A stretch of DNA of 64,000 bases from Clostridia bacterium (GCA_030592085.1 JAUUZV010000001.1:807-64806), one strand, 5' to 3'. Counted from the stretch's first letter, positions 4,034 through 50,137 are shown. Numbers and translations: made by a program. Notes: a model not told the origin generated them from the sequence alone.

Positions 4034-4378
4034 TCAATCAAACATGCCTGGTTTACCATCTTTACCAGGTAAATAAATCAGTATTAACAAAAATACTATC
4101 ACAACACCACCAGTAAGTATTACTCCCCAAAGTGGATTAGCAAATAAATCTTCTATGAATGAAAATCCAAAACTAATTACTAAACCAAAAATAAATATAC
4201 CTGTCATTAGTTTATCAACTATTCCAAAATCAAAAATAGAACCTACTCCACCCTTAAACTTCAAATATGATTTATAAAATATAAAATACACTGCACTAAG
4301 CAACACCATTAATAGACCTACTATTGTATAACTATTTATATTTGGTAATATTATACTCCAAAAACTTGGTAATGTCAT
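4034..4378 (-). CDS. multi-TM membrane protein, hypothetical
   Basis: 114-aa hydrophobic ORF. Confidence 0.35.
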   Translation of the reverse strand: MTLPSFWSIILPNINSYTIVGLLMVLLSAVYFIFYKSYLKFKGGVGSIFDFGIVDKLMTGIFIFGLVISFGFSFIEDLFANPLWGVILTGGVVIVFLLILIYLPGKDGKPGMFD

Positions 4379-4440
4379 TTTTATTTTCGCCTCCGTATCT
4401 TTTATTTGTTATTAATTCTAATTTTTTTAAGCTGTTTTAT

Positions 4441-4596
4441 TTAATCTTCCATATCTTTTCTTCCAATTACATACAAAACTATTAACATTAATCCAACAAC
4501 TAAAGATCCTACCCAAGCACCTGATTGATTTGCCACGACTAAATTTACAACAAACCCAGCAGAAAATACAATATCATATATTATTTTTTTTGTCAT
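4441..4596 (-). CDS. small TM protein, hypothetical (start taken at the internal Met MTKKIIY)
   Basis: Taking the internal Met removes the long overlap with ORF 4593..4787. One TM helix. Confidence 0.25.
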   Translation of the reverse strand: MTKKIIYDIVFSAGFVVNLVVANQSGAWVGSLVVGLMLIVLYVIGRKDMED

Positions 4597-7694: not shown

Positions 7695-8289
7695 TTATTA
7701 TTTTACTTACATTATCGGTTACAATAGGTACAATATCAGCAGTTGTTTGAATTGCCACAGGTGTTAATACTCCAGCCAAAGCATCCCACCATACACCAAA
7801 ATTCCAAAGCCAATTAACAATTCCCTTAAAAGGAATAATATTTGGCTTATTCATCAATAATCCATAAGAAAATTCAGCAAATGCAAAAATTAATAATATA
7901 ATTCCTATTATCATAAGGTCAGTCGTTGGATCAAGTTGACTTCTACCAGCAAACCAGTTTCCTACTTTATACATTAAAAAACCTACAATTATAAATAATG
8001 CAACATAAATTAAAACTTGTTTAGCTAATGCTGATTTATAATCTGATCTTAAATTTTCAGGTAAAGTATTAATAACTTCTCCACTTTTTAATTGTTCCAT
8101 AGCACTATCAATTTGGCCATCACTATATACAACTTGACCAATTGTAGCATCAACAACTGGTTTCCAATCACCTGTATCTTTCCATACAACAATACCATTT
8201 ATTATACCAGCTATCATTCCTATAATTAACATACTATAAAATATTATAGACATGAATTTCAACATTGATGGTCCGGCTATTATTCCCAT
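7675..8289 (-). CDS. multi-TM membrane protein, hypothetical
   Basis: 204-aa ORF with TM helices at both ends. Confidence 0.35.
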   Translation of the reverse strand: MGIIAGPSMLKFMSIIFYSMLIIGMIAGIINGIVVWKDTGDWKPVVDATIGQVVYSDGQIDSAMEQLKSGEVINTLPENLRSDYKSALAKQVLIYVALFIIVGFLMYKVGNWFAGRSQLDPTTDLMIIGIILLIFAFAEFSYGLLMNKPNIIPFKGIVNWLWNFGVWWDALAGVLTPVAIQTTADIVPIVTDNVSKIIIVPTGG

Positions 8290-12786: not shown

Positions 12787-13191
12787 TTACTTAGTAATTT
12801 TTTCAAGCTTTGCTTTATCTTTGATAATTCTATCTTCAAGTTTTTTCTTAGTTTCAGCATCTTTTACTGCGTTCTGAGCTTTTCGATTCTCATCTTTAGC
12901 TGCTTTTAAAACTTTCTTAGCTTCTACTTCAACAGCTTTAGCGCCCTTTCTCTTATAATATGCTCTAGTTTTTTCAACCTTAATTTTCTTAAAAGCTGCT
13001 AATTCTTTAGTATATGCTTTAACAATCTCTTTTTGTTTAGCATCCCAAATTTTATATGTAGGTAATCTAGTTACAGTACCATCACTTTGAACTGTATATC
13101 TATAACCTTCTTCTACTTCAATTTTTTGATCTGTTTTTTCCGCTGGTATCGGAAATGCTGGTTTTACTGGTTTTTCATTTTCTTCTGCCAT
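12787..13191 (-). CDS. Lys/Glu-rich basic protein, hypothetical (start at the second Met, MAEENEK)
   Basis: A strong SD, AAGGAGGGGAAA, lies 7 nt before the second ATG, and a TATATAAA element sits about 45 nt upstream. An oligo-T terminator follows the gene. Confidence 0.5.
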   Translation of the reverse strand: MAEENEKPVKPAFPIPAEKTDQKIEVEEGYRYTVQSDGTVTRLPTYKIWDAKQKEIVKAYTKELAAFKKIKVEKTRAYYKRKGAKAVEVEAKKVLKAAKDENRKAQNAVKDAETKKKLEDRIIKDKAKLEKITK

Positions 13192-13430
13192 TTTCCCCTC
13201 CTTAAGGTTTTTAATAAATGAAAGTTTTATCATTTATATACTTTTAGATTCTCAAGAGATAATATCATAATATGTAATAGTTTTTTTCATTTATTTATTT
13301 TTTTTTCATTAAAAAATAAATAATTTTGATCTACATTAAAAAAATTATAACTAACTAATATACATATTCAAAAATAACAATATATTTAAATACAAAATTC
13401 TTAAAAAATATATAATCAGGGGATGTATGC

Positions 13431-13691
13431 ATGGAAAATGAAGCAGACATATATAAATATTATATAGGTAAAAGAGTTCGTATAACAAAACAACTGGCTA
13501 ATGGTAAAAATTTTTTCTATAGAGGCTTAGCAACTAAATTAATTAATAATAAATTAATTATTAATGATAAATATGTTGGCCAAATAGTAATAGCTTTTGA
13601 TGAAATTAAATTAATAGAAGTTATGTCACATAAATTAGATGACTTTAAAGATGTTCTGCCAGAAAATACGGACGATAAAAAAAATGAATGA
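13431..13691 (+). CDS. small beta-rich protein, possibly Sm-like or SH3-like
   Basis: 86-aa ORF with the pattern GKRVRI..(n)..G.L..(n)..VGQIVIAFDEIKLIEV. A TATATAAT element lies about 20 nt upstream. Confidence 0.3.
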   Translation: MENEADIYKYYIGKRVRITKQLANGKNFFYRGLATKLINNKLIINDKYVGQIVIAFDEIKLIEVMSHKLDDFKDVLPENTDDKKNE

Positions 13692-16377
13692 AATATTTAA
13701 TGTAAACGATGTCGAAAAAACATTTCAATTAACCAACTATGATGAAATAGAAATACGTGTTATTGAACCTAAAAAAGGTTCAAAAAACATTAAAACATTT
13801 CATACTCACAACAAACAAGATTTTATTAATAAAGCTAAAGAATTCTCAGGACAATCAATAAATCAAATTTATCATAGTGTATTCTTTGGAGTTAACGAAA
13901 GAAAAAAAGGTTGTAGTAAAGAAAAAGATATTTTCAAAGTAAATATTCTTCCTATCGATTTAGATTACAAAAGAGAATCATATACTAGTACTACTGATGA
14001 ACAAGTAAAATATACTATTGAAATAGGTCACAAATTAAGACAGTGGTTTATTGATAATAACTTTGAAGCTCCTTCTATGTCAATGAGTGGAAATGGAGTT
14101 GGATTATACCTAAAAGTACCGGCTATTCCTTTCAAAAACAATGAAGCTATGCTTGATTTTAAAGCTAAGTGGACATTATTTACTAAAAAAATACGAAAAA
14201 TTATAACAAATATGACTGATAAAGTTGAAGTTGATTACATACAAGATCTAAGTAGAATATTTAAAATTGTAGGAACTATGTCTGTAAAAGGAAATAAACA
14301 CAGACTAACAAAATGGATTGAATATAATAATAAAGAAGATGAAAACTTAAAAGAATATATTATGCAAATGGACGCTGAAGAAGAAAAAACCAAACCAATT
14401 GAAGTTAAACCTTTAAGTAAAGATATGTTAAAAAAAATCATTGAAGATGCTAATATTCAAGAATTACTAAATATGAAAGGAGAACAGGGAAAAAGAAGTG
14501 AGTTAGAACAAAAATTATTTAATAAGTTAGTACTAAAAGGAATAACTGATTTTAAACAATTAGACGCTATTATGAGTACTTGTAAGATTGGTAAATGGCA
14601 AGAAGGAACCAAATCTTATAAAGAGCATACATATAAAAATTCTTTAGCGTTTGTTGCTAAACTTAAAAAAAATAAGCCAAAACAAACTGGAAGTTATATC
14701 AGTGTTGAATTAAGCGATAATAGATATTTAATTAATAATAAATCAGGAATTTTTATACAAAAAGAACAGTATGATAAAAATAAAAAAGAACCATTTTATA
14801 CAAAAGAAAGAACAATTCATACTTGGCATATAGAAAAAGTAATTGTTGAACTATCCGCATACATGGATGACTTCTATTTTAAAATATTTGTTACTGATAA
14901 CAAACACAAACGAGAATTAAAAGGAACTATTGATGAAGTAGCTGAACTATTTAAAAAAATTCCTGGTTGTTGTGAATCTAGAAGTGTAAAAGATTGTATG
15001 TCACATCTGGTTAGTTTTTTGCAAACAGAAGAACGAGTAGAAATTGAAAAAAATCCTTTAACAACTGCGTTTGGGTTTGCTTATGATAAAGAAAATAAAA
15101 AAATAATTATAAAAGATGTGCTTCAAAACACTAAAATGGTTGAAGAAGTCACAAAAGAACAACTAAAAAAAGGTTTAGACGCCCTGTTTACTATTATAGA
15201 TAGTTATAATAAATCAGAATCACATAGAAATGAGTTAATAAGAATCATGGCAACTGGTTTGATTTATCCGTTTGGTTATATAAGAAAACAAATGTTACAG
15301 TTAGCTCCATTTGTAATTGTAAATGGACCATCAGGAACTGGAAAGACTTTAAGTGGTGATGTTATTCTTTGTATGTGGGGTTGTTGGGGTAAAAGAGGTT
15401 TTGAACATTCTGGAAGTACTGTTAATGGAGCTTATCAATTAGCAAAAAAATGTAGTGAAAATACAATGTTCTTATTGATAAACGAAGCTGGACAGTTTTT
15501 AGCTAAATTCTCTGAAAATAACGAGATCACAGAATTGTTAAAAAATATGGTTGAATCTCCATTCCCAATACGAGATAAAAAAAGTGGAATGTTTATTTCT
15601 TTTAGGACTCCTTTCTTAACTGCCAACTATCCTTTTAAATTTAGTACTGATGCGTTAAGATTAAAGACTTTAGTGTTCTCTTTTGAGAACGATTTTACAC
15701 ATTCAGGTGATGAAAGAGCAGAAGTAATGCAATTATTAAGTTCATCTGAAAGAGATTTATCTTATATTGGTTCTTGGCTAACAAATAAAGTATCACAACA
15801 TGATAAAAAATATTTTGATATTATTACACAGAAAGATTATGCAAAAGCTTCTATGGATTTACTTAAAGAGTTGCTTGCTGATTCTGGAATGAATCATGAT
15901 TTACCAACACCTCCAGTAGTAGGGTCTTACATAAATAATGAAACTACATCATTTTGGGAAAATATGATTGATTATATGAGAATAGAAATAATAAAAAGAG
16001 CTAAACAAGTTGCAAGTATTGATGAATCAAAAGAAGGATTAAATGTAAGACAGTGTATAGATATAATTATAGATAAAAATAATTTACCTACTTGGTTAAT
16101 AACTATTCACAAAGATGTGGAATTAAAAGTACTTGTACCTGCTGAAATTCAACAATATGTGCAGACATTCTCTAAAGAAACCTTTGAAATGGGAGTTTAT
16201 GAGAAAGAAGTAAAAAATAGAGATGGTTATGATTATGTAAAAAGTAAAAATGTGCGTGTGCACGGTAAATCTACCAAAAAAAGTGGCATGTATGTGTTAA
16301 AGTCAAAATTTGTTGAGTTATTCGAAGAGCGTGCGCACCTTGAAAAACAAAAAACATTGTCTAATTCTGCACCATAA
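13639..16377 (+). CDS. primase-helicase: AEP-type primase domain fused to a D5-like SF3 helicase
   Basis: N-terminal region has ILPIDLDYK (DxD) and MSGNGVGLY (sGxGxH-like), which are AEP primase motifs. C-terminal region has the Walker A VNGPSGTGKT followed by LLINEAG (Walker B). The start may instead be the ATG at 13684 (MNEIFNV). Confidence 0.7.
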   Translation: MTLKMFCQKIRTIKKMNEIFNVNDVEKTFQLTNYDEIEIRVIEPKKGSKNIKTFHTHNKQDFINKAKEFSGQSINQIYHSVFFGVNERKKGCSKEKDIFKVNILPIDLDYKRESYTSTTDEQVKYTIEIGHKLRQWFIDNNFEAPSMSMSGNGVGLYLKVPAIPFKNNEAMLDFKAKWTLFTKKIRKIITNMTDKVEVDYIQDLSRIFKIVGTMSVKGNKHRLTKWIEYNNKEDENLKEYIMQMDAEEEKTKPIEVKPLSKDMLKKIIEDANIQELLNMKGEQGKRSELEQKLFNKLVLKGITDFKQLDAIMSTCKIGKWQEGTKSYKEHTYKNSLAFVAKLKKNKPKQTGSYISVELSDNRYLINNKSGIFIQKEQYDKNKKEPFYTKERTIHTWHIEKVIVELSAYMDDFYFKIFVTDNKHKRELKGTIDEVAELFKKIPGCCESRSVKDCMSHLVSFLQTEERVEIEKNPLTTAFGFAYDKENKKIIIKDVLQNTKMVEEVTKEQLKKGLDALFTIIDSYNKSESHRNELIRIMATGLIYPFGYIRKQMLQLAPFVIVNGPSGTGKTLSGDVILCMWGCWGKRGFEHSGSTVNGAYQLAKKCSENTMFLLINEAGQFLAKFSENNEITELLKNMVESPFPIRDKKSGMFISFRTPFLTANYPFKFSTDALRLKTLVFSFENDFTHSGDERAEVMQLLSSSERDLSYIGSWLTNKVSQHDKKYFDIITQKDYAKASMDLLKELLADSGMNHDLPTPPVVGSYINNETTSFWENMIDYMRIEIIKRAKQVASIDESKEGLNVRQCIDIIIDKNNLPTWLITIHKDVELKVLVPAEIQQYVQTFSKETFEMGVYEKEVKNRDGYDYVKSKNVRVHGKSTKKSGMYVLKSKFVELFEERAHLEKQKTLSNSAP

Positions 16378-16389
16378 AACTCTTTTAGG

Positions 16390-16550
16390 TAAGCACGTTA
16401 CGCCTAATATGCCCGCAAAAAAACCAACGTCCTTATATTATTTTACAAAGTTCTATTTTATCATGGGAGCACCCGGGAGCATCGTAACCATTATGCTCAA
16501 CGGGCTTAACGGGCTTACCCTGCTTACCGCGCTTACTACGCTTACTCCCC
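16390..16550. promoter_or_regulatory. GC-rich island with short direct repeats; candidate replication origin or iteron region
   Basis: GGGAGCA occurs twice, and five tandem 9-bp units ending in GCTTA(C) span 16501..16545. The island sits in AT-rich DNA directly 3' of the primase-helicase gene. Confidence 0.35.
16501..16545. repeat. 5 x 9-bp tandem repeat (acgggctta acgggctta ccctgctta ccgcgctta ctacgctta)
   Basis: Read directly from the sequence. Confidence 0.7.
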
Positions 16551-16727
16551 TTTATATATAAATATTTAATAATAATAATAAATATATATATAAGAACAGT
16601 TTCTTTATGATGTGATTGTTGGAGGAGCAACAAACATATAAATCAACGAATTATTATGGAATAAAGATGTACAAAAAATCATAATTTTTTTGTTAAAAAA
16701 ATAAAACCAAATGGAGGAAATTAAAAA

Positions 16728-17105
16728 ATGAAAAGAGTAGAATTACTAAAGATTGATGTAGATAAGTATGTAAACGATAAAGCCCAGATTGTTTCAGCTG
16801 AGGTAGTTAAGTTGAAATTTGGAACAGTAATAAAAGTTTTAACAAACCCGTTAGAACTTAAAGGAGATGATAAGCTCCCAGAAGGTCGTCATTTGACTGG
16901 AAGTATTTTATTAGGATTGGTAGATTCAGATGAAGGTTTGGCTATTGGAATAGATGGTAAATCTGAAAAATGGTTAATTGCTCATGGAGTAGATGTGACA
17001 AAAGATATTCCAGATGACTTAAAGATTGGAGATCAATGCAAAGCACTTCTTGGAAAAGATGTAGTTGTTCAAAAGAATACTGGCGGTTTCTTAGAAATTG
17101 CTTAA
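16728..17105 (+). CDS. hypothetical acidic protein
   Basis: 125-aa ORF with a strong SD, GGAGGAAATTAAAAA, before the ATG. Confidence 0.45.
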   Translation: MKRVELLKIDVDKYVNDKAQIVSAEVVKLKFGTVIKVLTNPLELKGDDKLPEGRHLTGSILLGLVDSDEGLAIGIDGKSEKWLIAHGVDVTKDIPDDLKIGDQCKALLGKDVVVQKNTGGFLEIA

Positions 17106-17125
17106 TTTTTTTTATTTTTTTTAAA

Positions 17126-17518
17126 ATGCGAAATGATGGTGTTAATTATGAAGAACATATTAACAAGTTTTTTAAAGGAACGAACGTGTCTAATATACAT
17201 AATTACTGTGATATAGAGACTAAAAGTTCGTTATATGAAGTAAAAGGATGTAAAATATACTTAGAAAACAAGACTGGGTCAATGAGTTTAGGAAGATACC
17301 AAATAAATTTTGATAATCACAAACAATTAAAACAAGAAGCTGATAAGTTAAATAAAAAAGCAAAATATGTTTTTTTGTTAAGAATTGACAGACAAAAAAT
17401 ATTTAAAACAATGTCGTGGTTGGTAGTAAATCATATATTATTATTAGAAGGTCGAGAATTTAAAAAAGAAGATAGTGAAACAAAAATGTATAATATAAGA
17501 TTAAGGAGCGTGTGGTAA
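17126..17518 (+). CDS. PD-(D/E)xK nuclease-like protein, possibly an Hjc/RecB-like resolvase
   Basis: YCDIETKSSLYEVKGCK fits a D...E.K nuclease core. The internal Met at 17126 was chosen because the track ORF start at 17036 overlaps the upstream gene. Confidence 0.3.
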   Translation: MRNDGVNYEEHINKFFKGTNVSNIHNYCDIETKSSLYEVKGCKIYLENKTGSMSLGRYQINFDNHKQLKQEADKLNKKAKYVFLLRIDRQKIFKTMSWLVVNHILLLEGREFKKEDSETKMYNIRLRSVW

Positions 17519-17519
17519 A

Positions 17520-17909
17520 ATGTTTAAATTAAAAAAAGAATTTAATATTAGTTGTAGTCATAGACTTTTTGATATGGATGCGTCAGATGAAACAAATAGT
17601 ATAATTTTTGGTAGATGTTGTAAAAATCATGGGCACAATTATAAAATAATTCTTTATCTTAAATCTGACTCATTAAAGCATGGTATGTTATTAAATTTTA
17701 ATGAAATAAAAGACATTTTCAACTTACATATAGATAATGTATATGATCATAAATTTTTGAATGATTGTCCTGGTTTTGAAAACGTTATACCAACTGCAGA
17801 AAATATGTGTAAAGTGTTTTTTAATAAGCTTAAAGTACATTTATCGACTTTATATGCTGTAGAAATATATGAAACAGAAGGTGCTTCTGCTATTTATGAG
17901 GATGATTAA
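17520..17909 (+). CDS. queD: 6-carboxy-5,6,7,8-tetrahydropterin synthase (QueD/PTPS family)
   Basis: CSHRLFDMD, CCKNHGHNYKI (CxxxHGH) and DHKFLND are QueD/PTPS signature motifs. SD AAGGAG upstream. Confidence 0.7.
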   Translation: MFKLKKEFNISCSHRLFDMDASDETNSIIFGRCCKNHGHNYKIILYLKSDSLKHGMLLNFNEIKDIFNLHIDNVYDHKFLNDCPGFENVIPTAENMCKVFFNKLKVHLSTLYAVEIYETEGASAIYEDD

Positions 17910-17910
17910 A

Positions 17911-18495
17911 ATGAAAGTGAATGAAATGTTTGAATCGTTGCAAGGCGAAGGTCGTTTTGTTGGATATCCTGTTATGTTTATTAGAATGTCAGGGTGTAAT
18001 AGGTCTTGCGTCTTTTGCGACACATCTTATCATAACGAAGGAGAAGAACTGTCAGTAGAACAAATGGTTAAAAAGATAGATAAAAGTAATATGAATATTA
18101 TTATTTTTACTGGAGGAGAACCTATGATGCAGTTCGATGATATTATAAAAGTTATTGAACAAACAAAAGATAAACAATATCATATTGAAACTAATGGTGA
18201 TTTATTAGTTCCTGAAAGTTATTTTGATTATGTATGTTTTTCACCTAAAAGTGAAGAAGGTTTAAATAAAGCATTAGGATATCCTGGTATATGTGATATA
18301 AAAGTAGTTACAGATTTAAATTTAAATAAAAATATGTTAGAGTCAGCGACGATGATAATGCCGTTAACAACTATATCAGATATTAAAAATTTAAAAATTA
18401 AACAACAAGTATGGAAGTATTGTGAGAAACATAACAAGCGATATGCACCTAGACTTCATGTGGATGTTTGGGGAATGTCTAAACGAGGAGTTTAA
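17911..18495 (+). CDS. queE: 7-carboxy-7-deazaguanine synthase (QueE, radical SAM)
   Basis: Start is the ATG after GAGGATGA. MFESLQGEGRFVGYPVMFIRMSGCNRSCVFCDT carries the radical-SAM CxxxCxxC cluster motif and a QueE-like N-terminus. Confidence 0.75.
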   Translation: MKVNEMFESLQGEGRFVGYPVMFIRMSGCNRSCVFCDTSYHNEGEELSVEQMVKKIDKSNMNIIIFTGGEPMMQFDDIIKVIEQTKDKQYHIETNGDLLVPESYFDYVCFSPKSEEGLNKALGYPGICDIKVVTDLNLNKNMLESATMIMPLTTISDIKNLKIKQQVWKYCEKHNKRYAPRLHVDVWGMSKRGV

Positions 18496-18885
18496 ATGAG
18501 AGATAATACAGATAATCTAAACAAAATGTATATTAGTTGGGAACAGTTTGGTATTGATATTGATAAATTAGCAAATCTTATTAGTTTAGAAGCTAGAGAG
18601 TTTGATAGCATTTATGGAATACCTCGTAATGGCACTATTATATCTAGTATTCTATCAAAAATGTTAAATTTGAAAATGGTTGATTATCCAGACTCCACTA
18701 GAACTCTTATAGTTGACGATATTTCGGATTCAGGAAAAACCTTAAAGGAATATAAGAACAAATTTAACGGTAATGTGATAGCTTGTATTTTTTATCGACA
18801 AAATACAGAAATAATGCCAGATATAGTTGTATATGATGCACAAAAAGATTGGATTGTATTTCCTTTTGAATTAAATGAAAAATAA
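18496..18885 (+). CDS. xanthine-guanine phosphoribosyltransferase-like type I PRTase
   Basis: TLIVDDISDSGKTL is a PRPP-binding motif. The N-terminal YISWEQF, the central GIPRNGTIISSIL and the C-terminal VVYDAQKDWIVFPF are collinear with E. coli Gpt. Confidence 0.65.
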   Translation: MRDNTDNLNKMYISWEQFGIDIDKLANLISLEAREFDSIYGIPRNGTIISSILSKMLNLKMVDYPDSTRTLIVDDISDSGKTLKEYKNKFNGNVIACIFYRQNTEIMPDIVVYDAQKDWIVFPFELNEK

Positions 18886-18899
18886 TTAATATAATAAAA

Positions 18900-19307
18900 A
18901 TGGCATCTGAAATGATCAATAACGAAGAATTAAACAATATGATACCTAAAGATCGTCACTCTGTTTTTAAAAAATTATCAGCAGAGGAAATAAGAAACTT
19001 ACATCCATCATATGTTAAAGTCATTGAAGAAAGTGGTATTACAGTTGAAGAGTATTTAGAACGAGTAAGAACAAAAAAATATCAAAAAAATAATAATCAA
19101 AAAATGAATGAACAACAAATGAATGATTTGGTAGATAAAGAAGTTGAGAAGGTAAAACAGCGGGATAAAACTGATGTTTTGAATAAGATTAAACACGCAA
19201 AACCACCTAAATCCGGCTCAAGGTTTGAAGATGTGTTAAAAGGTTATGAAGAAAAATATAAATATAAGTACAAGCGATTTGTCAAAGATTACAGGAATTC
19301 ATCTTAG
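18900..19307 (+). CDS. hypothetical Lys/Glu-rich protein
   Basis: 135-aa ORF of charged low complexity. Confidence 0.35.
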   Translation: MASEMINNEELNNMIPKDRHSVFKKLSAEEIRNLHPSYVKVIEESGITVEEYLERVRTKKYQKNNNQKMNEQQMNDLVDKEVEKVKQRDKTDVLNKIKHAKPPKSGSRFEDVLKGYEEKYKYKYKRFVKDYRNSS

Positions 19308-19382
19308 TTATGTTTCACGATTAAAGAAACAAGTTAAGGAATATTTAGAAGATCAAAATAAAAAACATTAAATGAGGTAAAA

Positions 19383-19877
19383 ATGATACAAAATCCAGAA
19401 ATGATTATAGAAAAAGATTTTGTTTCTCCAGTTACAGAGGAACAAATACAAATGAATGGAATTGATTTGAGAGTTGAAAGTGTACAGTCTATTGAAGGTG
19501 TTGTTTCTATATTTAAAGATAGTAAACAGTTGCCAAATTATATAAATATAAAGAGTGAAGTTAATTTAAATAAAGGAAAAATTTGGAAATTAGAACCTGG
19601 TAAAGCTTATCTTTTACAAATAGCAGAAACAATAAAAATACCAGAAGGAATGTGTGCTATGGTTTGGATGCGTTCAACCTTTAATAGAAGTGGAATTCCT
19701 ATCTTTGCCTGTGTTTTTGATTCAGGTTATGAAGGCAAACCAACATTCACAGCATATCCTACAATTCCTTTGTATTTAGAAAAAGGAACAAGGGTGGCTC
19801 AGATAGTTTATTTTAATGCTGATACTGCTAAAATGTATGTTGGTCAGTATCAAGGAGAAGGAATAAAAAAAGAATGA
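19383..19877 (+). CDS. dCTP deaminase/dUTPase-superfamily enzyme
   Basis: NGIDLRV, LEPGKAYLLQ and VFDSGYEGK are the beta-barrel dUTPase/Dcd motifs. SD GAGGT upstream. Confidence 0.6.
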   Translation: MIQNPEMIIEKDFVSPVTEEQIQMNGIDLRVESVQSIEGVVSIFKDSKQLPNYINIKSEVNLNKGKIWKLEPGKAYLLQIAETIKIPEGMCAMVWMRSTFNRSGIPIFACVFDSGYEGKPTFTAYPTIPLYLEKGTRVAQIVYFNADTAKMYVGQYQGEGIKKE

Positions 19878-19892
19878 ATGAGGTAATATAAA

Positions 19893-20123
19893 ATGAAAAA
19901 AATGAATACTTTAAGTAGGGCAACAATTTATGTGCATCGAAATCATGAAATGAGAGAAAAAGGAAGACTCAAATTTTTTAAACATGAAAGAATTAGGATT
20001 GAAATTAAATTAAAAAATAAAGAAAAAGCTGATTTCATTTATGCTGATGAGCTACAGAAATATCTAGCCGAAAATTTTGAATATGGAACAAAGTTAGAAA
20101 AGGAGGAGAAAAAAGATGAATAA
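19893..20123 (+). CDS. hypothetical small basic protein
   Basis: 76-aa ORF with an SD upstream. Confidence 0.3.
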   Translation: MKKMNTLSRATIYVHRNHEMREKGRLKFFKHERIRIEIKLKNKEKADFIYADELQKYLAENFEYGTKLEKEEKKDE

Positions 20124-20946
20124 AGAATTACCAAAATATAGAAATAAAGAAGATACAACAGGTTTAGCAATACAAAAAGTTGGTATACGAGGAGTAAGAG
20201 CACCGTTTACTTTAAAAACAAAAAATGGTGGAGATCAAGAAACTATAGGAACTTGGAGTATATATACAGATTTATCAGCACAATTTAAAGGTGTTAGTAT
20301 GAGTCTTATGGAAAGAATACTACATCAAACTTTACAAAATGAAATAAGTGTTGATATATTAAAAGATATAACAACTCAAATTTATGAAAAGTCTGAACAC
20401 AAATCCAAAGATGTATATGTGAAAGTTAAATTTCCATACTCAATTAAAGTTAAAGCACCAGCATCTGGTTTTGAAGCTGTAAAGGTTTATGATTGTATGT
20501 TGGAAGTTAGAAATATTGATGGAAAGATTAAAAAATATTTAACTGTAAAAGTTCAATATATAGCAACTTGTCCATGTGCGGCTGAATTAGCTGATGAATT
20601 AATGAAGACTGAAAATAAACAAAGTATGGCACATCAACAAAGAGGTTTTGCTGAAATTACTATAGAATTTGGAAATGAAATTGTATGGATAGAAGATGTG
20701 ATTAACATTGCAGAAAATGAATTAAAAGCTACACCATATCCAGTTATTAGAAGGCCAGATGAACAAAATATTTGTTATACAGCACGTCAAAACTGTGCTT
20801 TTGTAGAAGAAGCTGTAAGAAATATTTGTCTTGGTCTTATTAAAGAATCTAGAATTTTAGATTATGTTGTAGTATGTAATCATGAGGAAAGTATTCATTC
20901 TCACTCAGCCGTTGCTGTAATGAATGATGGAAAGGAGTTAAAATGA
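20116..20946 (+). CDS. folE2: GTP cyclohydrolase FolE2/MptA family (GCYH-IB)
   Basis: N-terminal VGIRGVRAPF, GVSMSLMERI (compare GxHMSRF) and the conserved CPC motif (ATCPCAAEL). SD GGAGGAG upstream. Confidence 0.65.
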   Translation: MNKELPKYRNKEDTTGLAIQKVGIRGVRAPFTLKTKNGGDQETIGTWSIYTDLSAQFKGVSMSLMERILHQTLQNEISVDILKDITTQIYEKSEHKSKDVYVKVKFPYSIKVKAPASGFEAVKVYDCMLEVRNIDGKIKKYLTVKVQYIATCPCAAELADELMKTENKQSMAHQQRGFAEITIEFGNEIVWIEDVINIAENELKATPYPVIRRPDEQNICYTARQNCAFVEEAVRNICLGLIKESRILDYVVVCNHEESIHSHSAVAVMNDGKELK

Positions 20947-22787: not shown

Positions 22788-23906
22788 ATGACTATGAAAG
22801 CCGTATTATATATGAGATTGTTTGAAGATTCTGGAATAACTAAATTACAAATATTTAAAAATAAAAAAGAACATCTTGTTGAGTTACCATTTAAACCTTA
22901 TTTTTTTGACTCAGCCAAAATAGATGGGTTAGTTGGAGAAGAAGTTATTTTAAAACCAGTTGATACATTACAACCTACTAAACTTTTTAAATATGAAGTT
23001 GATTCTGTAAAAGATATACCTAAATTAAGAACTAAAACGAGTATAGCTGCAGATGTAAATTATTTATTACGATTATGTATAGATCAACCTAGCTTTTTGA
23101 ACCAGTATTTTCAAACAGATGAATTAACATTTTTATATCTTGATATTGAAACTGATAGTATTGGAATTTTCCCTAAGCCTGAATTGAACCCAATTATTAG
23201 TATAGGATATGCTATTAATGATGGTCCAGTAAAAGTAATTAAAATTGATAAATTAGAAGATGGTGATATAAAACTTTTATTAGAGTTTAATGAAGTTATG
23301 GAAAAGTACAATCCTGATGTCATAGTTGGATATAATATTTTAATGTTCGATTTACCATATATTTTGAAAAGAATGAAAAAGAATGGAATAAGTACAGATT
23401 GTTGGACAAGAGGTAAAACATCTGCATTTTTCACAACTAGTTCTGGTAATGAAGTTTATAATATTCAAGGAAGGTTTGTATTTGATGTGATTAAAGAAGT
23501 GTTTCAAGATCAAACAATTCATGGCATTTCGAAAGGATTAAAACCAGTTTCAAAATATTTTAAAGTTGATGAAAAAATAAGACAAATACCAGGATATGAA
23601 GATTATCAAATTATAACTGAAGATGTTCATATCACGAGGCCATTAATCGGAACAGATAAATTGGCAAAATATAATGAGAGTGATGTTCTTATCACACGTG
23701 AATTATGTAAAATGTACATTGCTAATGTGATAGCGTTTGCAGAAATGTTACATGCTCCATTAAATATGATGGCTAAACGAACTACAAGTATGATAGGTTC
23801 TATTTTTTATGCAACCGAACTTAAAAAGAAAGGTATTATTGAATGTACTATGCCTAATTATAAAAGACACCCAGATGTATTTGGAACTTTAAAGGAGGGT
23901 TATTAA
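22788..23906 (+). CDS. polB: family B DNA polymerase, N-terminal half (3'-5' exonuclease domain)
   Basis: Exo I is YLDIETD, Exo II is YNILMFDLPY, Exo III is YNESD. The gene ends in TAA, which overlaps the ATG of the next gene. Confidence 0.75.
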   Translation: MTMKAVLYMRLFEDSGITKLQIFKNKKEHLVELPFKPYFFDSAKIDGLVGEEVILKPVDTLQPTKLFKYEVDSVKDIPKLRTKTSIAADVNYLLRLCIDQPSFLNQYFQTDELTFLYLDIETDSIGIFPKPELNPIISIGYAINDGPVKVIKIDKLEDGDIKLLLEFNEVMEKYNPDVIVGYNILMFDLPYILKRMKKNGISTDCWTRGKTSAFFTTSSGNEVYNIQGRFVFDVIKEVFQDQTIHGISKGLKPVSKYFKVDEKIRQIPGYEDYQIITEDVHITRPLIGTDKLAKYNESDVLITRELCKMYIANVIAFAEMLHAPLNMMAKRTTSMIGSIFYATELKKKGIIECTMPNYKRHPDVFGTLKEGY

Positions 23907-25105
23907 TGCCTTTTTTTAGAGAGTCTCGATTTAATGATGAGAAAGGAATACAAGGAGCTATTGTAGAGATTTATAAAACTGGTTTAATACGAAAAATAAA
24001 AAAGGTTGATTTTTCTGCTTTTTATCCTAGCATTGTTATGAGTTTTAATTTATCACCAGAAACAACAAAGATAAAGGAATATTTACCTTATACTAATAAA
24101 TATGATTTTGATATACAAAAGGATAGAACATTGTTATATATTCCAGATAATAGAATTAATAAAACAGTTGTCATTGAAATAAATAACACTATTCAAGGAT
24201 TTCTTCCAGCAAAACTTATTGAATTTAAAGAAAAAAGAGATAAGATTAAATTAAGATTAAGAGAAAAAAATTTAACACCAGGTGAACAAGTTTATCTTAA
24301 TAGTTTATCATGGACTTATAAAATTTTATCAAATTCTGTTGGTTATGGAATTAATAAAAATGCATGGTTTAAATATGGAGATTTATCAATATCAATAGCA
24401 ATTACTGGATTGGCTAGATATTTTATTCAGTTTGTAATGGACTTAAATCTTGATAAGAATATTGAAGTAGATACTGATGGTATATATGTAGATGGTGATA
24501 TAAATATTGATGATGTTAATTATAAAATAAAGGAACATACATTAGATAAATTTAATATTCCATTTGTTAAAAATTATTTATTTTTAGAGTTAGATGAATA
24601 CGATGCTGGATTTTTTTATAAAACTAAGAATTATCTTTTATTTAATAATGGTAAAGTTATAAAACATGGTGTTACATTTTTATCAAGTAGTAAAACAATA
24701 CTTTTTAAGAAAGCTTTAGATAAAATAGCTGAATATATATTTAATAATAAGTCAGTTATTGAAGCTGTTAATATACTTATAAATGAAGAAAGTACACTTA
24801 AAGATTTTACTATGAAAACTAATATAAATCAACCTATTTCTGAATATAAAAATGATGGATGTTTGCAAAAACAATTAGCTAAACAAGTTAAAGAACATTT
24901 AAAACAAGATTTACAAGTTTCTGATACAATCGATTATATTAAGACCAAAGATGGCTATAAAATATTAACGATAGCAAAGTTACACGAAGTTGATAAAAGA
25001 TATTATTATGATCAATTACAAACGTTAATTAATATTTTTACTGATGAAAAAATTAGTATTGAGAACGGTGGAGCTGTAATACAAAAAAAACTTGAAGGGT
25101 ATTAG
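23906..25105 (+). CDS. polB: family B DNA polymerase, C-terminal half (polymerase domain)
   Basis: Motif A is DFSAFYPSI, motif B is KILSNSVGYG, motif C is VDTDGIYV. It is in a different frame from the upstream half and overlaps it by 1 nt. Confidence 0.75.
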   Translation: MPFFRESRFNDEKGIQGAIVEIYKTGLIRKIKKVDFSAFYPSIVMSFNLSPETTKIKEYLPYTNKYDFDIQKDRTLLYIPDNRINKTVVIEINNTIQGFLPAKLIEFKEKRDKIKLRLREKNLTPGEQVYLNSLSWTYKILSNSVGYGINKNAWFKYGDLSISIAITGLARYFIQFVMDLNLDKNIEVDTDGIYVDGDINIDDVNYKIKEHTLDKFNIPFVKNYLFLELDEYDAGFFYKTKNYLLFNNGKVIKHGVTFLSSSKTILFKKALDKIAEYIFNNKSVIEAVNILINEESTLKDFTMKTNINQPISEYKNDGCLQKQLAKQVKEHLKQDLQVSDTIDYIKTKDGYKILTIAKLHEVDKRYYYDQLQTLINIFTDEKISIENGGAVIQKKLEGY

Positions 25106-27133: not shown

Positions 27134-27763
27134 ATGAATGAAATGGAAACAAAAAAAATAGCAATAGTTGGTGCTGGTGGCATTAATAGTTGGGCTATAA
27201 AATGGTTACATCAGTTAATTGAAGATTTTGATAGAAAATTAATTTATGTAAAGATCTTCGATAATGATGAAGTAGAAGAAAAGAATTTACTACGTAATAA
27301 TCAAAATTTTCAAATAGATGATTTACTATCACAAAAGGCGGAAGTTCTTTCTGAAAGATATAACTTTGATTGTGAAAACATTTTTATTACTGAGGATAAT
27401 ATTCAAAAATTAGCTAGTTTTGATGATATAATTTTAGGAGTAGATAATCATAAAACTAGGAAATTAATTTATGATTTTGCATTAAAGAATAATAAATATG
27501 TTCTTGATATGAGAGCTCAAGGCACTATCATGGGTTTTACAATTATAGATGGTAGTAAAGACATGGATTATTATAATAAAAAAATGTTTAATAATTTAGA
27601 AGTTATGGAAAGAAAAGGTAGTTGTCAGTTAAAGAGTGATGTTGAAAATGATCATATAGAAAATGCTAATCGAGTAATAGCAATGTTAGGTATTTATTCA
27701 GTTTATTTGAAAAGATTAAGAAAAGAAAAAGTATCTACGGACGAATGGAAATTTGTATATTAA
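27134..27763 (+). CDS. ThiF/MoeB/E1-like adenylyltransferase (adenylation domain only)
   Basis: IVGAGGINSW is the Gly-rich loop. FDNDEVEEKNLLRNNQ matches DxDxVExSNLNRQ. LGVDNHKTRKLI matches the DN..R motif. There is no C-terminal CxxC region. Confidence 0.6.
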   Translation: MNEMETKKIAIVGAGGINSWAIKWLHQLIEDFDRKLIYVKIFDNDEVEEKNLLRNNQNFQIDDLLSQKAEVLSERYNFDCENIFITEDNIQKLASFDDIILGVDNHKTRKLIYDFALKNNKYVLDMRAQGTIMGFTIIDGSKDMDYYNKKMFNNLEVMERKGSCQLKSDVENDHIENANRVIAMLGIYSVYLKRLRKEKVSTDEWKFVY

Positions 27764-32367: not shown

Positions 32368-32750
32368 TATGGCTTTTATATCGATAAATAAAAATGGAAA
32401 GTTTCATTGTTTTTTAGAAGGTGAAGATTTATTTGAAATCAATAAAAAATTGGATGATTATAAGAAGAAATATAAGATTATAAATATGGGTTTATTTGGA
32501 AAAATTATTAAAGAATCTAGATGGAGTATAACTAATAAAATAAAAATATTAAAGGTACAAAATGAAAAATAATATCGTTGATTCAAAAGTGGTAATATTA
32601 CAAGGTACAAAATATAAAGCATATTTAAAAAAAGTAGCGTCTTCTGTCTTGCCTGGAGGCAAACCTAGCAGTTATTGTGTACGACCTTTTATCAAAAAAA
32701 TTAGATCTAAAAATTAATTTATGGACAATAAAGTGTGGCTTAAAGTGTTC

Positions 32751-32860
32751 TAATATAGATATTATATTATAGTATAATACAATTTATATTTTTTAATATA
32801 GATATTATATTATACTATAATACAATTTATATTTTTTAATATAGATGATACTATATACAA
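32751..32860. repeat. about 2.5 copies of a 43-44 bp tandem direct repeat (taatatagatattatattata[gc]tataatacaatttatatttttt)
   Basis: Read directly from the sequence. It lies in a 570-bp region with no long ORF. Confidence 0.7.
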
Positions 32861-32884
32861 AAGTATAAAAAGGTGTAACATATA

Positions 32885-32946
32885 AAAATAATAATAATAA
32901 TTATTATAATTATTTTAATTATTTTAATTATTATTATTATTATTTT
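32885..32946. repeat. ATT/ATA-rich microsatellite-like low-complexity tract
   Basis: aataataataattattataattattttaattattttaattattattattattatttttt. Confidence 0.6.
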
Positions 32947-33144
32947 TTGAGGGGTGAGTTACTATCGTTAAGAAAAATTATAAAACTAATTACACTATTC
33001 CTTTTGAGTTTCATGAGTATATTTTAAATTATAAAAAACAACGTTCTATTACTATGGAAGAAGCTTTAATTTTAATTGTTTCTGAACATAAAAAAAATAA
33101 AGAAAAACAGGACGCAACTAAAAAAGAACTAAAAGCGTAATAAG

Positions 33145-33465
33145 ATGAATGAAAGAAGAATAGTATTTAATAAAGCTTACTGGGTATTTATTTATTTAGT
33201 TATTACTGATGAAAGATATTTAAACGTTGAAGGTAAGCTTTTAGCTAATATAGTTACTAAAAAAGGTTACTGTGAAAGCATAACTAAAGCAGCAAAAAAT
33301 ATGGGTATAGATATATCTAGGATTTGGAAAATTTGCCACGAAATCGAAAATAGAGGCCATGTACAAATGCAAAAAGATGGTAATAAGTTAAGAATTTTTT
33401 TTGATGAAAAGATTCAAAAAGAATCAACAAAAATGTTGAGGTTAGTATTAGAAGATGAATTTTAA
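33145..33465 (+). CDS. HTH-like regulator, hypothetical
   Basis: GYCESITKAAKNMGIDISRIWKICHEIENRG resembles a helix-turn-helix. Confidence 0.3.
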   Translation: MNERRIVFNKAYWVFIYLVITDERYLNVEGKLLANIVTKKGYCESITKAAKNMGIDISRIWKICHEIENRGHVQMQKDGNKLRIFFDEKIQKESTKMLRLVLEDEF

Positions 33466-43337: not shown

Positions 43338-43770
43338 TTATAAGGTACATGCTGTATTTGGTTTTTTGTTTGTGGTAGTTATTATTTTTTTATTATATTT
43401 TTATGATTTAATAAACCTTAATGCAAAAATACTATTTTATATACCTGCAATATTAGTCTTTGCTTTACTTCCAGATTTAGATAGTGGATCAAGTATTATT
43501 AGACGATCTATACTTACATTATTAATTTTAATATTTATAGGATCTTCTATAATGTTTTTTATGACACATGATATAATGTATATTGCACCAATAACTATAA
43601 TTATAATATTGAATATAATTATAAAGTTATCAAAGCATAGAGGTTTAATGCATAATATAATAACAGGAATTATATTAGCATCACCATTATTAGTTATTGA
43701 TTGGGGAGTTGCATTAGCAGCTTTTTTTGCTTATTTTTCTCATTTATTATTAGACGGAAAGTTAATTTAG
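43309..43770 (+). CDS. membrane-bound metal-dependent hydrolase-like protein (YdjM/DUF457-like?)
   Basis: Polytopic. LLPDLDSGSSIIRRS resembles the LPDIDHP..(n)..G motif of that family. Confidence 0.3.
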   Translation: MNLKKQKMPSYKVHAVFGFLFVVVIIFLLYFYDLINLNAKILFYIPAILVFALLPDLDSGSSIIRRSILTLLILIFIGSSIMFFMTHDIMYIAPITIIIILNIIIKLSKHRGLMHNIITGIILASPLLVIDWGVALAAFFAYFSHLLLDGKLI

Positions 43771-46657: not shown

Positions 46658-47368
46658 TTACCTCAGTTTTCTAAATTTGTTTTTAATAATAAACCCAATC
46701 ATTACAAGGCCTAATAAAAACGCCTTTATTTTGCTACCTGTTACAGAAGATTTACCAACTCTTTTCTTATAATTTAATGGGATCTCCATAAAATTAATAT
46801 TTTTTTTAATAATTAATAACATCATTTCCACTCCAAAATGAGAACCTCCTATTGTGAAATAAGGTTCAATTTTTTGTAATACTGATCTTTTTATTAAACG
46901 CATAGTACATCCAACGTCTGTTAAAATTGAAGTATTGTAAAGCAATTCCATTAGTTTTGCAATAAATACATTTCCCCATTTGATAAAGAAGCCTATATTT
47001 GCTCCTTCCCAAATAAGATTTCTGCTAGTCCTAGAACCGAAAACCACATCAAAGTCATCCGAATAGGCTAATAATTTAATTATATCTCTGCCTAAAAAAG
47101 TTCCATCTGGTTCTGCTAAGATTATATAATCACCACTTGCAAATTTTAATCCTTTTCTAATTGCATGACCATAACCTTGTTTATGTTCATATACTTCTTT
47201 TGCTTTAGTTTTTGATACTTCTTTAGATGTACCATAAGCAGCATTATTATTTACAACAATTATTTCATCAATATATCCAGAACTAAAGAAATCATTAATT
47301 GAAGTCTTTATAGATTTCTTCTCATTGTAAGTTGGAAAAATTACAGATATTTTTTTATTTTTCCACAT
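46658..47368 (-). CDS. family-2 glycosyltransferase (dolichyl-phosphate sugar synthase-like)
   Basis: N-terminal ISVIFPTYNEKKSI, DGTF and YIILAEPDG are GT2/DPM1-like motifs. Amphipathic C-terminus. Confidence 0.6.
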   Translation of the reverse strand: MWKNKKISVIFPTYNEKKSIKTSINDFFSSGYIDEIIVVNNNAAYGTSKEVSKTKAKEVYEHKQGYGHAIRKGLKFASGDYIILAEPDGTFLGRDIIKLLAYSDDFDVVFGSRTSRNLIWEGANIGFFIKWGNVFIAKLMELLYNTSILTDVGCTMRLIKRSVLQKIEPYFTIGGSHFGVEMMLLIIKKNINFMEIPLNYKKRVGKSSVTGSKIKAFLLGLVMIGFIIKNKFRKLR

Positions 47369-49483: not shown

Positions 49484-50137
49484 TCATATTCTTCTTGCTG
49501 CTATTTTTCCTTTTTCTTTTCTATATCTTCTTAATAAAGTTGAGGTAGTAACACCAATTGTTTTAGCTATTTCAGACCACGAATATACAAATTTACCTGT
49601 GTCTTTATCTGTTACAGCTAAAAAATTTTCGACTTGTTTCCAATTAATTTTTGCTTTTGGTCTTCCAAACTTTTCAGGATTGTTCTTATATGCGATATCT
49701 CTACCAATTCTAGTATTATCTATTATAGTTTCTCTTTGCCATTCAGCAACACTAGCCATAATACCCATAACCATTCTTCCAAATGTGTTTGCAGTATCTA
49801 AACTTTGTTCTACAAATTTAAGATGTATATTTATTTTTTGTAATTCTTTTTGAGTATTAATCATTTGTTGTAAATTTCTACCGAATCTATCAACTCTTAG
49901 ACAATATATTTTATCAAATTTTTTTTCTTTAGCATCTATAATCATTTTTAAAAAATCTTTCATATATTCTTGTGACTTACCACTAATATATTGATCTACA
50001 TAACTTTTATAGAATTCATTATCATCAACACTAATCTGCTTATTACATTTATCTAATTGGTTTTGAATACTTTTTGCGATGTATTCACCTTGTTCCTTTC
50101 TAGTTGGACTAACTCGTGCGTATATTGCCGCTTTCAT
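49484..50137 (-). CDS. small serine recombinase (resolvase/invertase family)
   Basis: N-terminal AAIYARVSPTRKEQ contains the catalytic Ser context, plus SIQNQ. C-terminal HTH is IAKTIGVTTSTLLRRYR. Confidence 0.7.
   Translation of the reverse strand: MKAAIYARVSPTRKEQGEYIAKSIQNQLDKCNKQISVDDNEFYKSYVDQYISGKSQEYMKDFLKMIIDAKEKKFDKIYCLRVDRFGRNLQQMINTQKELQKINIHLKFVEQSLDTANTFGRMVMGIMASVAEWQRETIIDNTRIGRDIAYKNNPEKFGRPKAKINWKQVENFLAVTDKDTGKFVYSWSEIAKTIGVTTSTLLRRYRKEKGKIAARRI

Follow-up and report, generated by a model that had tools for sequence, protein, structure and literature searches.

We analyzed a 64-kb stretch of DNA with an overall GC content of 27.4% (JAUUZV010000001.1:807-64806, listed under Clostridia bacterium; hereafter, the window), with emphasis on a gene for a putative primase-helicase and on a repeat island immediately 3' of it, a candidate replication origin. 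The gene most likely occupies positions 13684-16377 of the plus strand and encodes 897 aa. An earlier reading of the same DNA, made from the sequence alone (the sequence-only reading), had placed the start at 13639 and the length at 912 aa. An ATG is present there and does give 912 aa, but the shorter form is likelier: it is the one given in the public record, P0001, and the homologs likewise have N-termini corresponding to the ATG at 13684. The latter start overlaps the stop codon of a small upstream open reading frame (ORF) within ATGAATGA. The upstream ORF (13431-13691, plus strand, 86 aa) has an 8-nt overlap with the start of the primase-helicase gene, and its product has no match in Pfam or PHROGs. 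In relatives this position is taken by AbrB-like or ribbon-helix-helix (RHH) genes, and the plasmid pRN1 carries orf56 at the corresponding place (PMC4234260). By analogy, the 86-aa product may be a regulator of the replication operon.

The primase-helicase has 523 homologs at E<=1e-3 (HMMER search against 1.84 billion representatives). Residues 1-330 and residues ~330-890 match different sets of proteins; thus, the two parts of the protein are shuffled modules. Taken alone, the full-length protein has no usable sequence match in Pfam, PHROGs, or PDB. The sequence-only reading described the protein as an archaeo-eukaryotic primase (AEP) joined to a D5-like helicase. AlphaFold models and Foldseek comparison with PDB bear this out for the fold; the agreement does not extend to sequence-level membership in the curated families. 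As judged from these searches, the protein family appears to be undescribed and invisible to the Pfam and PHROG models.

The AEP (Prim-Pol-like) catalytic domain, delineated by alignment, model, and Foldseek, is encoded at 13684-14388 (plus strand). It contains the motif P-I-D92-L-D94 at 13951-13965 (D92xD94 at 13957-13965), the motif S135-G-N-G at 14086-14097, and D184 at 14233-14235. In the 28-sequence family alignment A3, residues D92, D94, G136, N137, D184, R191, and G197 are invariant. The previously proposed DxD motif is therefore retained, D92 and D94 being invariant in this alignment. Of the sGxGxH-like motif, proposed together with it, SGNG is present and the histidine is absent: the window protein has SGNGVGLY where the family consensus is SGNGYQLW. 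The AlphaFold model of the N-terminal 339 aa has a mean predicted confidence (pLDDT) of 90.7, and its top Foldseek matches in PDB belong to the AEP superfamily only. These are RepB' (3h20, E 1e-6), the CAPP Prim-Pol (7p9j), the polymerase domain of LigD, and PriS; NrS-1 is also among the matches, and the structural similarity (TM) scores are 0.3-0.5 across the top ones. No Pfam or PHROG primase family matches the window protein at E<=0.01, and a LigD_Prim-Pol Pfam match is found in one of the 28 members of the primase family. The catalytic core is followed by a helical domain (14416-14673, plus strand; helices 246-330 of the model and the family consensus) with a conserved SRSEAE...KIGKW motif; some family members match the Pfam NrS1-1_pol-like HBD model. 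The N-terminal half thus has an AEP primase fold, and primer synthesis is its predicted activity.

The C-terminal half contains the ATPase core of a superfamily 3 (SF3) helicase at 15325-15627 (plus strand), with the Walker A, Walker B, and C motifs. The Walker A sequence V-N-G-P-S-G-T-G-K-T, named already in the sequence-only reading, lies at 15319-15348, with GPSGTGKT corresponding to residues 548-555 (15325-15348). The Walker B glutamate E601 is encoded at 15484-15486, and motif C, T646-A-N648, at 15619-15627. Among 13 homologs, residues G548, T552, K554, E601, T646, and N648 are invariant or nearly so. The AlphaFold model of the C-terminal 575 aa (pLDDT 86.4) has its best fold matches in two self-loading initiator helicases, SCCmec Cch (5dgk, E 5e-12) and SaPIbov1 Rep (8tch, E 9e-10); further matches are E5 of monkeypox virus (MPXV), vaccinia D5, PriRep1, NrS-1, E1, and LTag. 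At the sequence level, a profile of the helicase half yields nothing beyond P-loop-level matches in PDB. The Pfam families D5_N, Pox_D5, and DUF5906 are not matched by the window protein; they are found in other proteins sharing only the N-terminal domain. The motifs and the model identify the C-terminal half as an SF3 helicase of the SaPI-Rep / Cch / D5 type, for which hexamer formation and 3'-5' unwinding are predicted. Residues ~788-872 (16045-16299, plus strand) form a separate C-terminal domain with the secondary-structure order helix / beta-hairpin / helix-helix / beta-hairpin in the model. This order is compatible with a winged helix reading the repeats, in analogy with the C-terminal winged helix that binds the origin in the Rep proteins of Staphylococcus aureus pathogenicity islands, or SaPIs (PMC9371898), and in pRN1 ORF904 (PMC4234260).

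The first repeat unit of the island is located 11 bp past the stop codon of the primase-helicase gene. It belongs to a short arm of three inverted 9-bp units, GTAAGC-ACG, TTACGC-CTA, and ATATGC-CCG (16388-16415, minus strand), which become more degenerate towards the centre of the island. Next to the short arm is an AT-rich spacer (16416-16464) with 22% GC and an A7 run. It is followed by a GC-rich centre (16465-16498, plus strand) containing two GGGAGCA copies around a CCCGGG, and a small hairpin, GAGCAT-N10-ATGCTC, whose 6-bp stem is formed by 16477-16482 and 16493-16498; no counterpart of this centre was recognised in the related loci considered below. The long arm consists of six tandem 9-bp units (16495-16548, plus strand) with the cores GCTCAA, GCTTAA, and four GCTTAC, the best copies being outermost. 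It is bordered by an outer (TA)n/(TAA)n flank with 8% GC (16550-16600), which is a candidate DNA-unwinding element and also holds a TATA-like sequence before the next gene. The five tandem 9-bp units ending in GCTTA(C) that had been noticed previously are all present, with cores at 16504, 16513, 16522, 16531, and 16540, and a degenerate sixth unit is found at 16495; the inverted short arm, the AT-rich spacer, and the 8% GC outer flank are additions to that description. The earlier estimate of a GC-rich island of about 160 bp is right as to the island and not as to its size, since the truly GC-rich part covers ~85-100 bp and 160 bp is the length of the whole repeat structure. Calculated for 60-nt segments, 16453-16560 peaks at 58% GC, and no other non-coding part of the window attains 50%. 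The GGGAGCA heptamer does occur twice, at 16465 and 16475, and nowhere else in the window; two copies per 64 kb are within chance expectation (shuffle mean 1.43), and only their 10-bp spacing is notable.

The repeat array is far beyond chance. The sequence GCTTACNNNGCTTAC, with at most one mismatch allowed, has four matches compared to 0.04 expected, and none of 100 shuffles reached four. At least four identical 6-mers spaced 8-12 bp apart were seen in 2 of 200 shuffled windows. No other array in the 64 kb has an inverted copy nearby. Scanning of IMG/VR with the degenerate array GCTTAM-N3 x4 produced 68 matches, all of them perfect microsatellites or collagen-like coding repeats; they reside in unrelated contigs and were rejected as homologs. 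An exact 19-mer of the array has a single match, inside a GC-rich phage gene, which was dismissed as a chance one.

The short arm (I1, 28 nt, with GTAAGC at 16389) is 75% complementary to 16501-16528. This raises the possibility that the island is a structured non-coding RNA whose arms form a long-range helix, as is also suggested by the mere presence of a GC-rich patch in a 27% GC genome and by the predicted fold, which pairs 16388-16415 with 16501-16528 and closes the local hairpin. We consider such an RNA very improbable. Folding is barely better than that of shuffled sequences (z -1.64 and -1.15 for RNA, -1.86 for DNA), no Rfam 15 family matches at the gathering score or comes near it in a permissive scan, and ARAGORN detects neither tRNA nor tmRNA. 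In the relatives, the layout is kept and the sequence is not, and in three of them the region is translated. Finally, both arms decay towards the centre, and the outer two or three units of the long arm, which are left unpaired by the short arm, are nevertheless the best conserved; this points to protein-binding sites rather than a hairpin.

GC-rich islands of AT-rich viruses are often host-derived attachment cores, and the window encodes a serine recombinase (49484-50137, minus strand; Resolvase N-terminal domain, E 9e-27). The GC-rich patch might accordingly be a recombination site, either an attachment site copied from a host tRNA or another host gene or a site for the serine recombinase, but this origin of the patch is extremely unlikely. 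The search for tRNA-like sequences was negative, and 33 kb separate the island from the recombinase gene. When 185,579 species genomes and IMG/VR were searched for the 20-mer GGGAGCACCCGGGAGCATCG of the GC-rich centre, no exact match was obtained. Moreover, helicase genes of other elements are accompanied by this layout too, with sequences that are unrelated.

We compared every obtainable locus encoding a relative of the helicase half (22-38% identity), 12 in addition to the window. Inverted arrays of tandem 8-11-bp units are present beside the helicase gene in all 12. The full layout, comprising a short arm, a spacer, a long arm of ~5-7 units, and an AT-rich flank, is observed in eight of them (L075, L076, L077, L078, L081, L082, L083, and L084). 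Spacers with A- or T-runs equivalent to that of the window occur in L075, L078, L082, L083, and L084, and flanks with 8-21% GC abut the long arm in L075, L077, L081, L082, and L083. As in the window, the arrays are located immediately 3' of the gene in L075, L076, and L078, as well as in two methanogen viruses. In L075, they start 4 bp past the stop codon, with three copies of ATACATAG in the short arm and two inverted copies in the long arm, followed by (TAA/TAG)n. In L076, the distance is 24 bp, the short arm has two copies of GTATATAGTG, and the long arm has five copies of ACTACTATAT, followed by the AT-rich repeat TAATAAATAA. In L078, the arrays start 12 bp past the stop codon and include three copies of GGTAGGTAC in the short arm and seven 10-bp units in the long arm.

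The two viruses are Methanobacterium virus Drs3 (L090) and Methanobacteriales virus vir080 (L091). Drs3 has four copies of TCATCAACC starting 4 bp past the stop codon, then 3+3 inverted copies of AGGGTTGA (4282-4515 of the locus, 7719-7952 of the record). These units fill the 258-bp gap after ORF11; the annotation there consists of coding sequences only, and ORF11 is labeled hypothetical. In vir080, three copies of GTTACT start 15 bp past the stop codon and are again followed by 3+3 inverted copies. An additional search for related loci with the helicase alignment gave no hits in IMG/VR, none in genomes, and two in metagenomes. Two further loci that have only the primase half in common with the window, L001 and L003, contain weaker 9-bp triplets 300-580 bp downstream and were excluded from the support. 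In L003, an Ace-Lake-type contig, runs of the 9-bp unit ATTCCTGTA at 15260-15450 extend across called ORFs and short gaps; in the near-identical L005, the preceding ORF (14651-14980) has a Pentapeptide Pfam match. The ATTCCTGTA runs of L003 may be coding repeats rather than iterons.

The cores of the repeats are all different (GCTTAC, ATACATAG, GGTAGGTAC, TGTAATA, ACTACC, ATGTCTCA, TTTACTAC, TCATCAACC, GTTACT, and others), and the downstream genes, compared for the window, L075, L076, L077, and L078, are not homologous to one another. Since the arrays are constant beside the helicase gene while their cores differ and the downstream genes are unrelated, the element travels and diverges together with the helicase gene. 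At the level of sequence comparison, such joint travel and divergence is the behaviour of a cognate initiator-origin pair, unlike that of a conserved RNA or a regulatory site specific for a neighbouring gene.

In L077 and L081, the arrays are found upstream, before an AbrB-like ORF; each has three inverted copies in the short arm and five copies of GTAATA in the long arm, with an 8-12% GC flank. The small ORF between the arrays and the helicase gene (5758-6000 in L077, 1769-1954 in L081) carries an AbrB/SpoVT-like signature recognised by eye (RVTIPKKIAAAAGYKMGD / RITIPKQLLAFVGWKAGD), and its product is likely a copy-number or transcription regulator. This arrangement bears on an alternative function of the island, in which the repeats are operator sites with no part in initiation and a small regulator (AbrB, RHH, or the product of the 86-aa ORF) controls either the genes past 16.6 kb or the replication operon. 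Related plasmids do encode RHH and AbrB proteins, and the island itself lies between two co-oriented genes and is followed by the TATA-like AT-rich sequence and the GGAGG ribosome-binding site of the ORF at 16728. Still, a purely regulatory role is improbable: the position of the arrays tracks the 3' end of the helicase gene whatever gene follows, at least nine units, divided between two opposed arms and combined with AT-rich DNA, correspond to the layout of a SaPI origin, and in L082, L083, and L084 the arrays are inside the coding sequence. A regulatory role could coexist with origin function.

In these three loci (L082, 5647-5770; L083, 1789-1980; L084, 1613-1742), the arrays are in frame within the helicase ORF, 360-435 bp before its stop codon. 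They are translated as a low-complexity Ser/Thr/Gly-rich linker, e.g. TTQTTSTTS...SGSSGSLSSLGSSGS, which is followed by an extra C-terminal domain of ~70 aa. Because the arms are reverse complements, they encode different peptides (ACTACC yields Thr-Thr and GGTAGT yields Gly-Ser), and thus the symmetry exists at the DNA level and not at the protein level. The alignment of protein P0021 with its 897-aa counterpart from the window ends at residue 871 of the latter, and the P0021 arrays begin a few codons later, matching the place of the window arrays. Judging from these sequences, L082-L084 appear to carry an origin-like element within the very gene that encodes its initiator. It may be speculated that a 9-bp period is common in the helicase family because it keeps the reading frame.

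Translation of equivalent repeats within the helicase protein of three relatives, together with the fact that 9 bp is three codons, calls for consideration of the window repeats as a small protein-coding gene. Two ORFs are indeed present, one on the plus strand (16310-16561, ending ...LNGLNGLTLLTALTTLTPLYI) and one on the minus strand (16433-16633, containing ...SKRSKRGKQGKPVKPV...). However, their codon-usage scores are -0.60 and -0.31 bits per codon, respectively, compared to +0.22 to +0.57 in 22 real genes, and the repeats use CTT, AAG, ACC, and GGG, whereas the genome prefers TTA, AAA, ACA/ACT, and GGA/GGT. Both ORFs start with TTG and lack a GGAGG site, the helicase frame is closed by two stop codons, and the reverse-complement symmetry of the arms would be meaningless in a protein. 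A coding function of the window repeats can hardly be credited.

The invariant motifs of the protein, its AEP and SF3 folds, the repeat array exceeding chance, its recurrence in the relatives, and the SaPI precedent together lead us to regard the region 16388-16600 as a probable replication origin served by the primase-helicase encoded just upstream. The arrangement of an initiator gene followed by its origin, suggested in the sequence-only reading, is supported by the arrays beside the gene in 12 of 12 relatives and by the published layout of SaPIs.

Several observations weigh against this assignment. The most distant loci, a Methanothermobacter plasmid (L092) and Thermococcus pTI1 (L093), fit less cleanly, as they have inverted arrays only, separated from the gene by 94-430 bp. 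Topology is the sole basis for regarding the C-terminal domain as a winged helix, and the short arm contains a single perfect core. The island is in a promoter-like position before the next gene, so that regulatory and origin roles are inseparable. The cumulative G-C skew, to which the sequence-only reading had looked for an inflection near 16.4 kb, has none there; its minimum is at 13417 and its maximum at 43770. Both extremes coincide with switches of gene orientation, and a 30-kb rightward block is enclosed between leftward flanks: genes are directed leftward up to ~13.2 kb, rightward at 13.4-43.3 kb, and leftward beyond. As the skew follows the coding strand and its minimum is only 3 kb from the island, it is uninformative rather than contrary. 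Finally, another repeat-rich region, at 32.70-32.95 kb, could equally be an origin. This AT-rich intergenic region (32700-32950) contains a perfect 43-bp tandem repeat (32751-32846, 2.2 copies, 98% matches) and then (ATAATTATT)n at 32888-32943; GCTTAC and its complement are found 58 bp apart at 33175 and 33233. The region may serve as a second origin, in DNA packaging, or as a strong promoter.

A mechanism for the proposed origin can be drawn by analogy with SaPI Rep, P4 alpha, and pRN1 ORF904. The C-terminal winged-helix-like domain of each subunit would bind one repeat unit, so that the six units of the long arm would nucleate one hexamer, and the opposing short arm would help to place a second, oppositely oriented hexamer. 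The assembly would melt the AT-rich DNA at 16416-16464 and/or 16550-16600 with no separate loader. The helicase rings would then travel outward, and the tethered AEP domain would lay the first primers for the viral family-B DNA polymerase. The latter is split in two abutting ORFs, with the exonuclease part at 22788-23906 and the polymerase part at 23906-25105.

The genomic context agrees with a viral element of archaea. In tblastn searches, the helicase half has matches only in archaeal elements, namely Methanobacterium virus Drs3, a Methanobacteriales virus, and plasmids of Methanothermobacter, Thermococcus, and Sulfolobus (the Sulfolobus match being weak), and the family-B polymerase is nearest to those of haloarchaeal tailed viruses (~23% identity). 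For these two reasons, the window is probably a genome segment of an archaeal tailed virus, as far as sequence similarity can tell. Downstream of the island, we observed genes for QueD (17520-17909), the radical-SAM protein QueE (17869-18495), a phosphoribosyltransferase-like ORF (18496-18885), a dCTP-deaminase-like gene (19383-19877), and FolE2 (20116-20946). This cluster of genes for 7-deazaguanine precursors (17520-20946) suggests that the virus modifies its DNA bases; the contigs of FolE2 relatives (60% identity) stop short of any primase gene. The window also encodes a ThiF-family protein (27134-27763, plus strand), a family-2 glycosyltransferase (46658-47368, minus strand), and a Laminin_G_3 protein of 1342 aa, and the serine recombinase mentioned above hints at integration or inversion. 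None of the 20 window proteins searched against PHROGs matches a family of known function, and the region 13000-18000 has no DNA similarity to any of 50,697 phage records.

To our knowledge, the replication origins of archaeal viruses are almost entirely unmapped. Here, a 200-bp candidate origin and its candidate initiator are defined for a virus with ~27% GC. The rule of opposed 8-11-bp arrays near the 3' end of the helicase gene held for all related loci in the comparison, among them a cultured methanogen virus and archaeal plasmids, and would aid the annotation of origins, the construction of methanogen shuttle vectors, and the study of initiator-origin co-divergence. In Drs3, the gap after ORF11 provides an experimentally tractable candidate origin in a cultured virus. 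The by-products of greatest interest are the conserved 3+6 layout and the fact that some relatives translate it in frame. A broader proposal, which we put forward tentatively as quite possible but short of probable, is that the island exemplifies an origin design, conserved but so far undescribed, of Pfam-invisible SF3 initiator helicases in archaeal viruses and plasmids, including the cultured Drs3. This design would combine a long arm of about six units, one unit per hexamer subunit, an opposed arm of half that size, and an adjoining near-pure AT stretch, and its tie to the 3' end of the helicase gene would be so close that in some lineages translation continues through the element, giving an in-frame Ser/Thr/Gly linker with an extra C-terminal domain behind it. 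If this is true, sequence could directly reveal the origins of many uncultured archaeal viruses and the specificities of their initiators.

The closest parallel among known systems is provided by SaPIs. Their ori is immediately downstream of rep and has 6-12 iterons; an AT-rich region is flanked on either side by two or more of them, and those on one side point opposite to those on the other. The helicase is self-loading and reads the iterons through its C-terminal winged helix, the iteron sequence is particular to each initiator, and SaPI5 has a helicase-primase fusion, PriRep5 (PMC9371898). The window shares with SaPIs an SF3-type initiator, with SaPIbov1 Rep among its best fold matches, a candidate ori directly 3' of the gene, and opposed short iterons around AT-rich DNA, here three inverted (one perfect and two degenerate) and six direct ones around the 22% GC spacer. 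Those features of a SaPI-type origin that can be read from sequence, i.e. the 3' location, the opposed iterons around AT-rich DNA, and lineage-specific iterons, are all present. The differences are that no similarity is detectable in sequence (the window protein has neither a PDB sequence match nor a Pfam match), the window units are 9-bp periodic whereas those of SaPIs are penta- or hexanucleotides, the arms are unequal (3 and 6 units), a second near-pure AT stretch lies outside the long arm, and the hosts of the family appear to be archaeal rather than S. aureus. The window primase is of the AEP type.

The second parallel is pRN1, which requires a sequence directly 3' of orf904 and has an origin described as a stem-loop of 100 nt that lacks iterons (PMC4234260). 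Here, the likeness includes the archaeal host (a probable one for the window), the combination of an AEP prim-pol, an SF3 helicase, and a C-terminal DNA-binding domain (putative in the window protein), the cis element located 3', and a small upstream gene, which codes for a repressor in pRN1. Unlike the pRN1 stem-loop, the window element consists of iteron arrays and has weak hairpin potential, with the arms pairing over 28 nt at 75% and the z-scores of -1.64 (RNA) and -1.86 (DNA) given above. In the alpha protein of phage P4, a primase and an SF3 helicase are joined to a C-terminal winged helix, which binds to octamers repeated at the origin (PMC4234260). The window protein resembles it in joining a primase with an SF3 helicase and, as proposed, in using repeats as origin sites. 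The P4 primase is of the bacterial Toprim type and not of the AEP type, and ori and crr of P4 are separate sites that are not known to lie at the 3' end of the gene. Embedded iterons are known from the coding sequence of lambda O (ori-lambda), the product of which is neither a helicase nor a primase; the arrays of L082-L084, in frame inside the initiator gene, resemble this arrangement, whereas those of the window are outside the ORF. An initiator helicase-primase with an adjacent iteron origin has apparently not yet been described in this protein family and host range. The general design, however, is known from SaPIs, P4, and pRN1, and the candidate origin described here extends the principle rather than overturning it.

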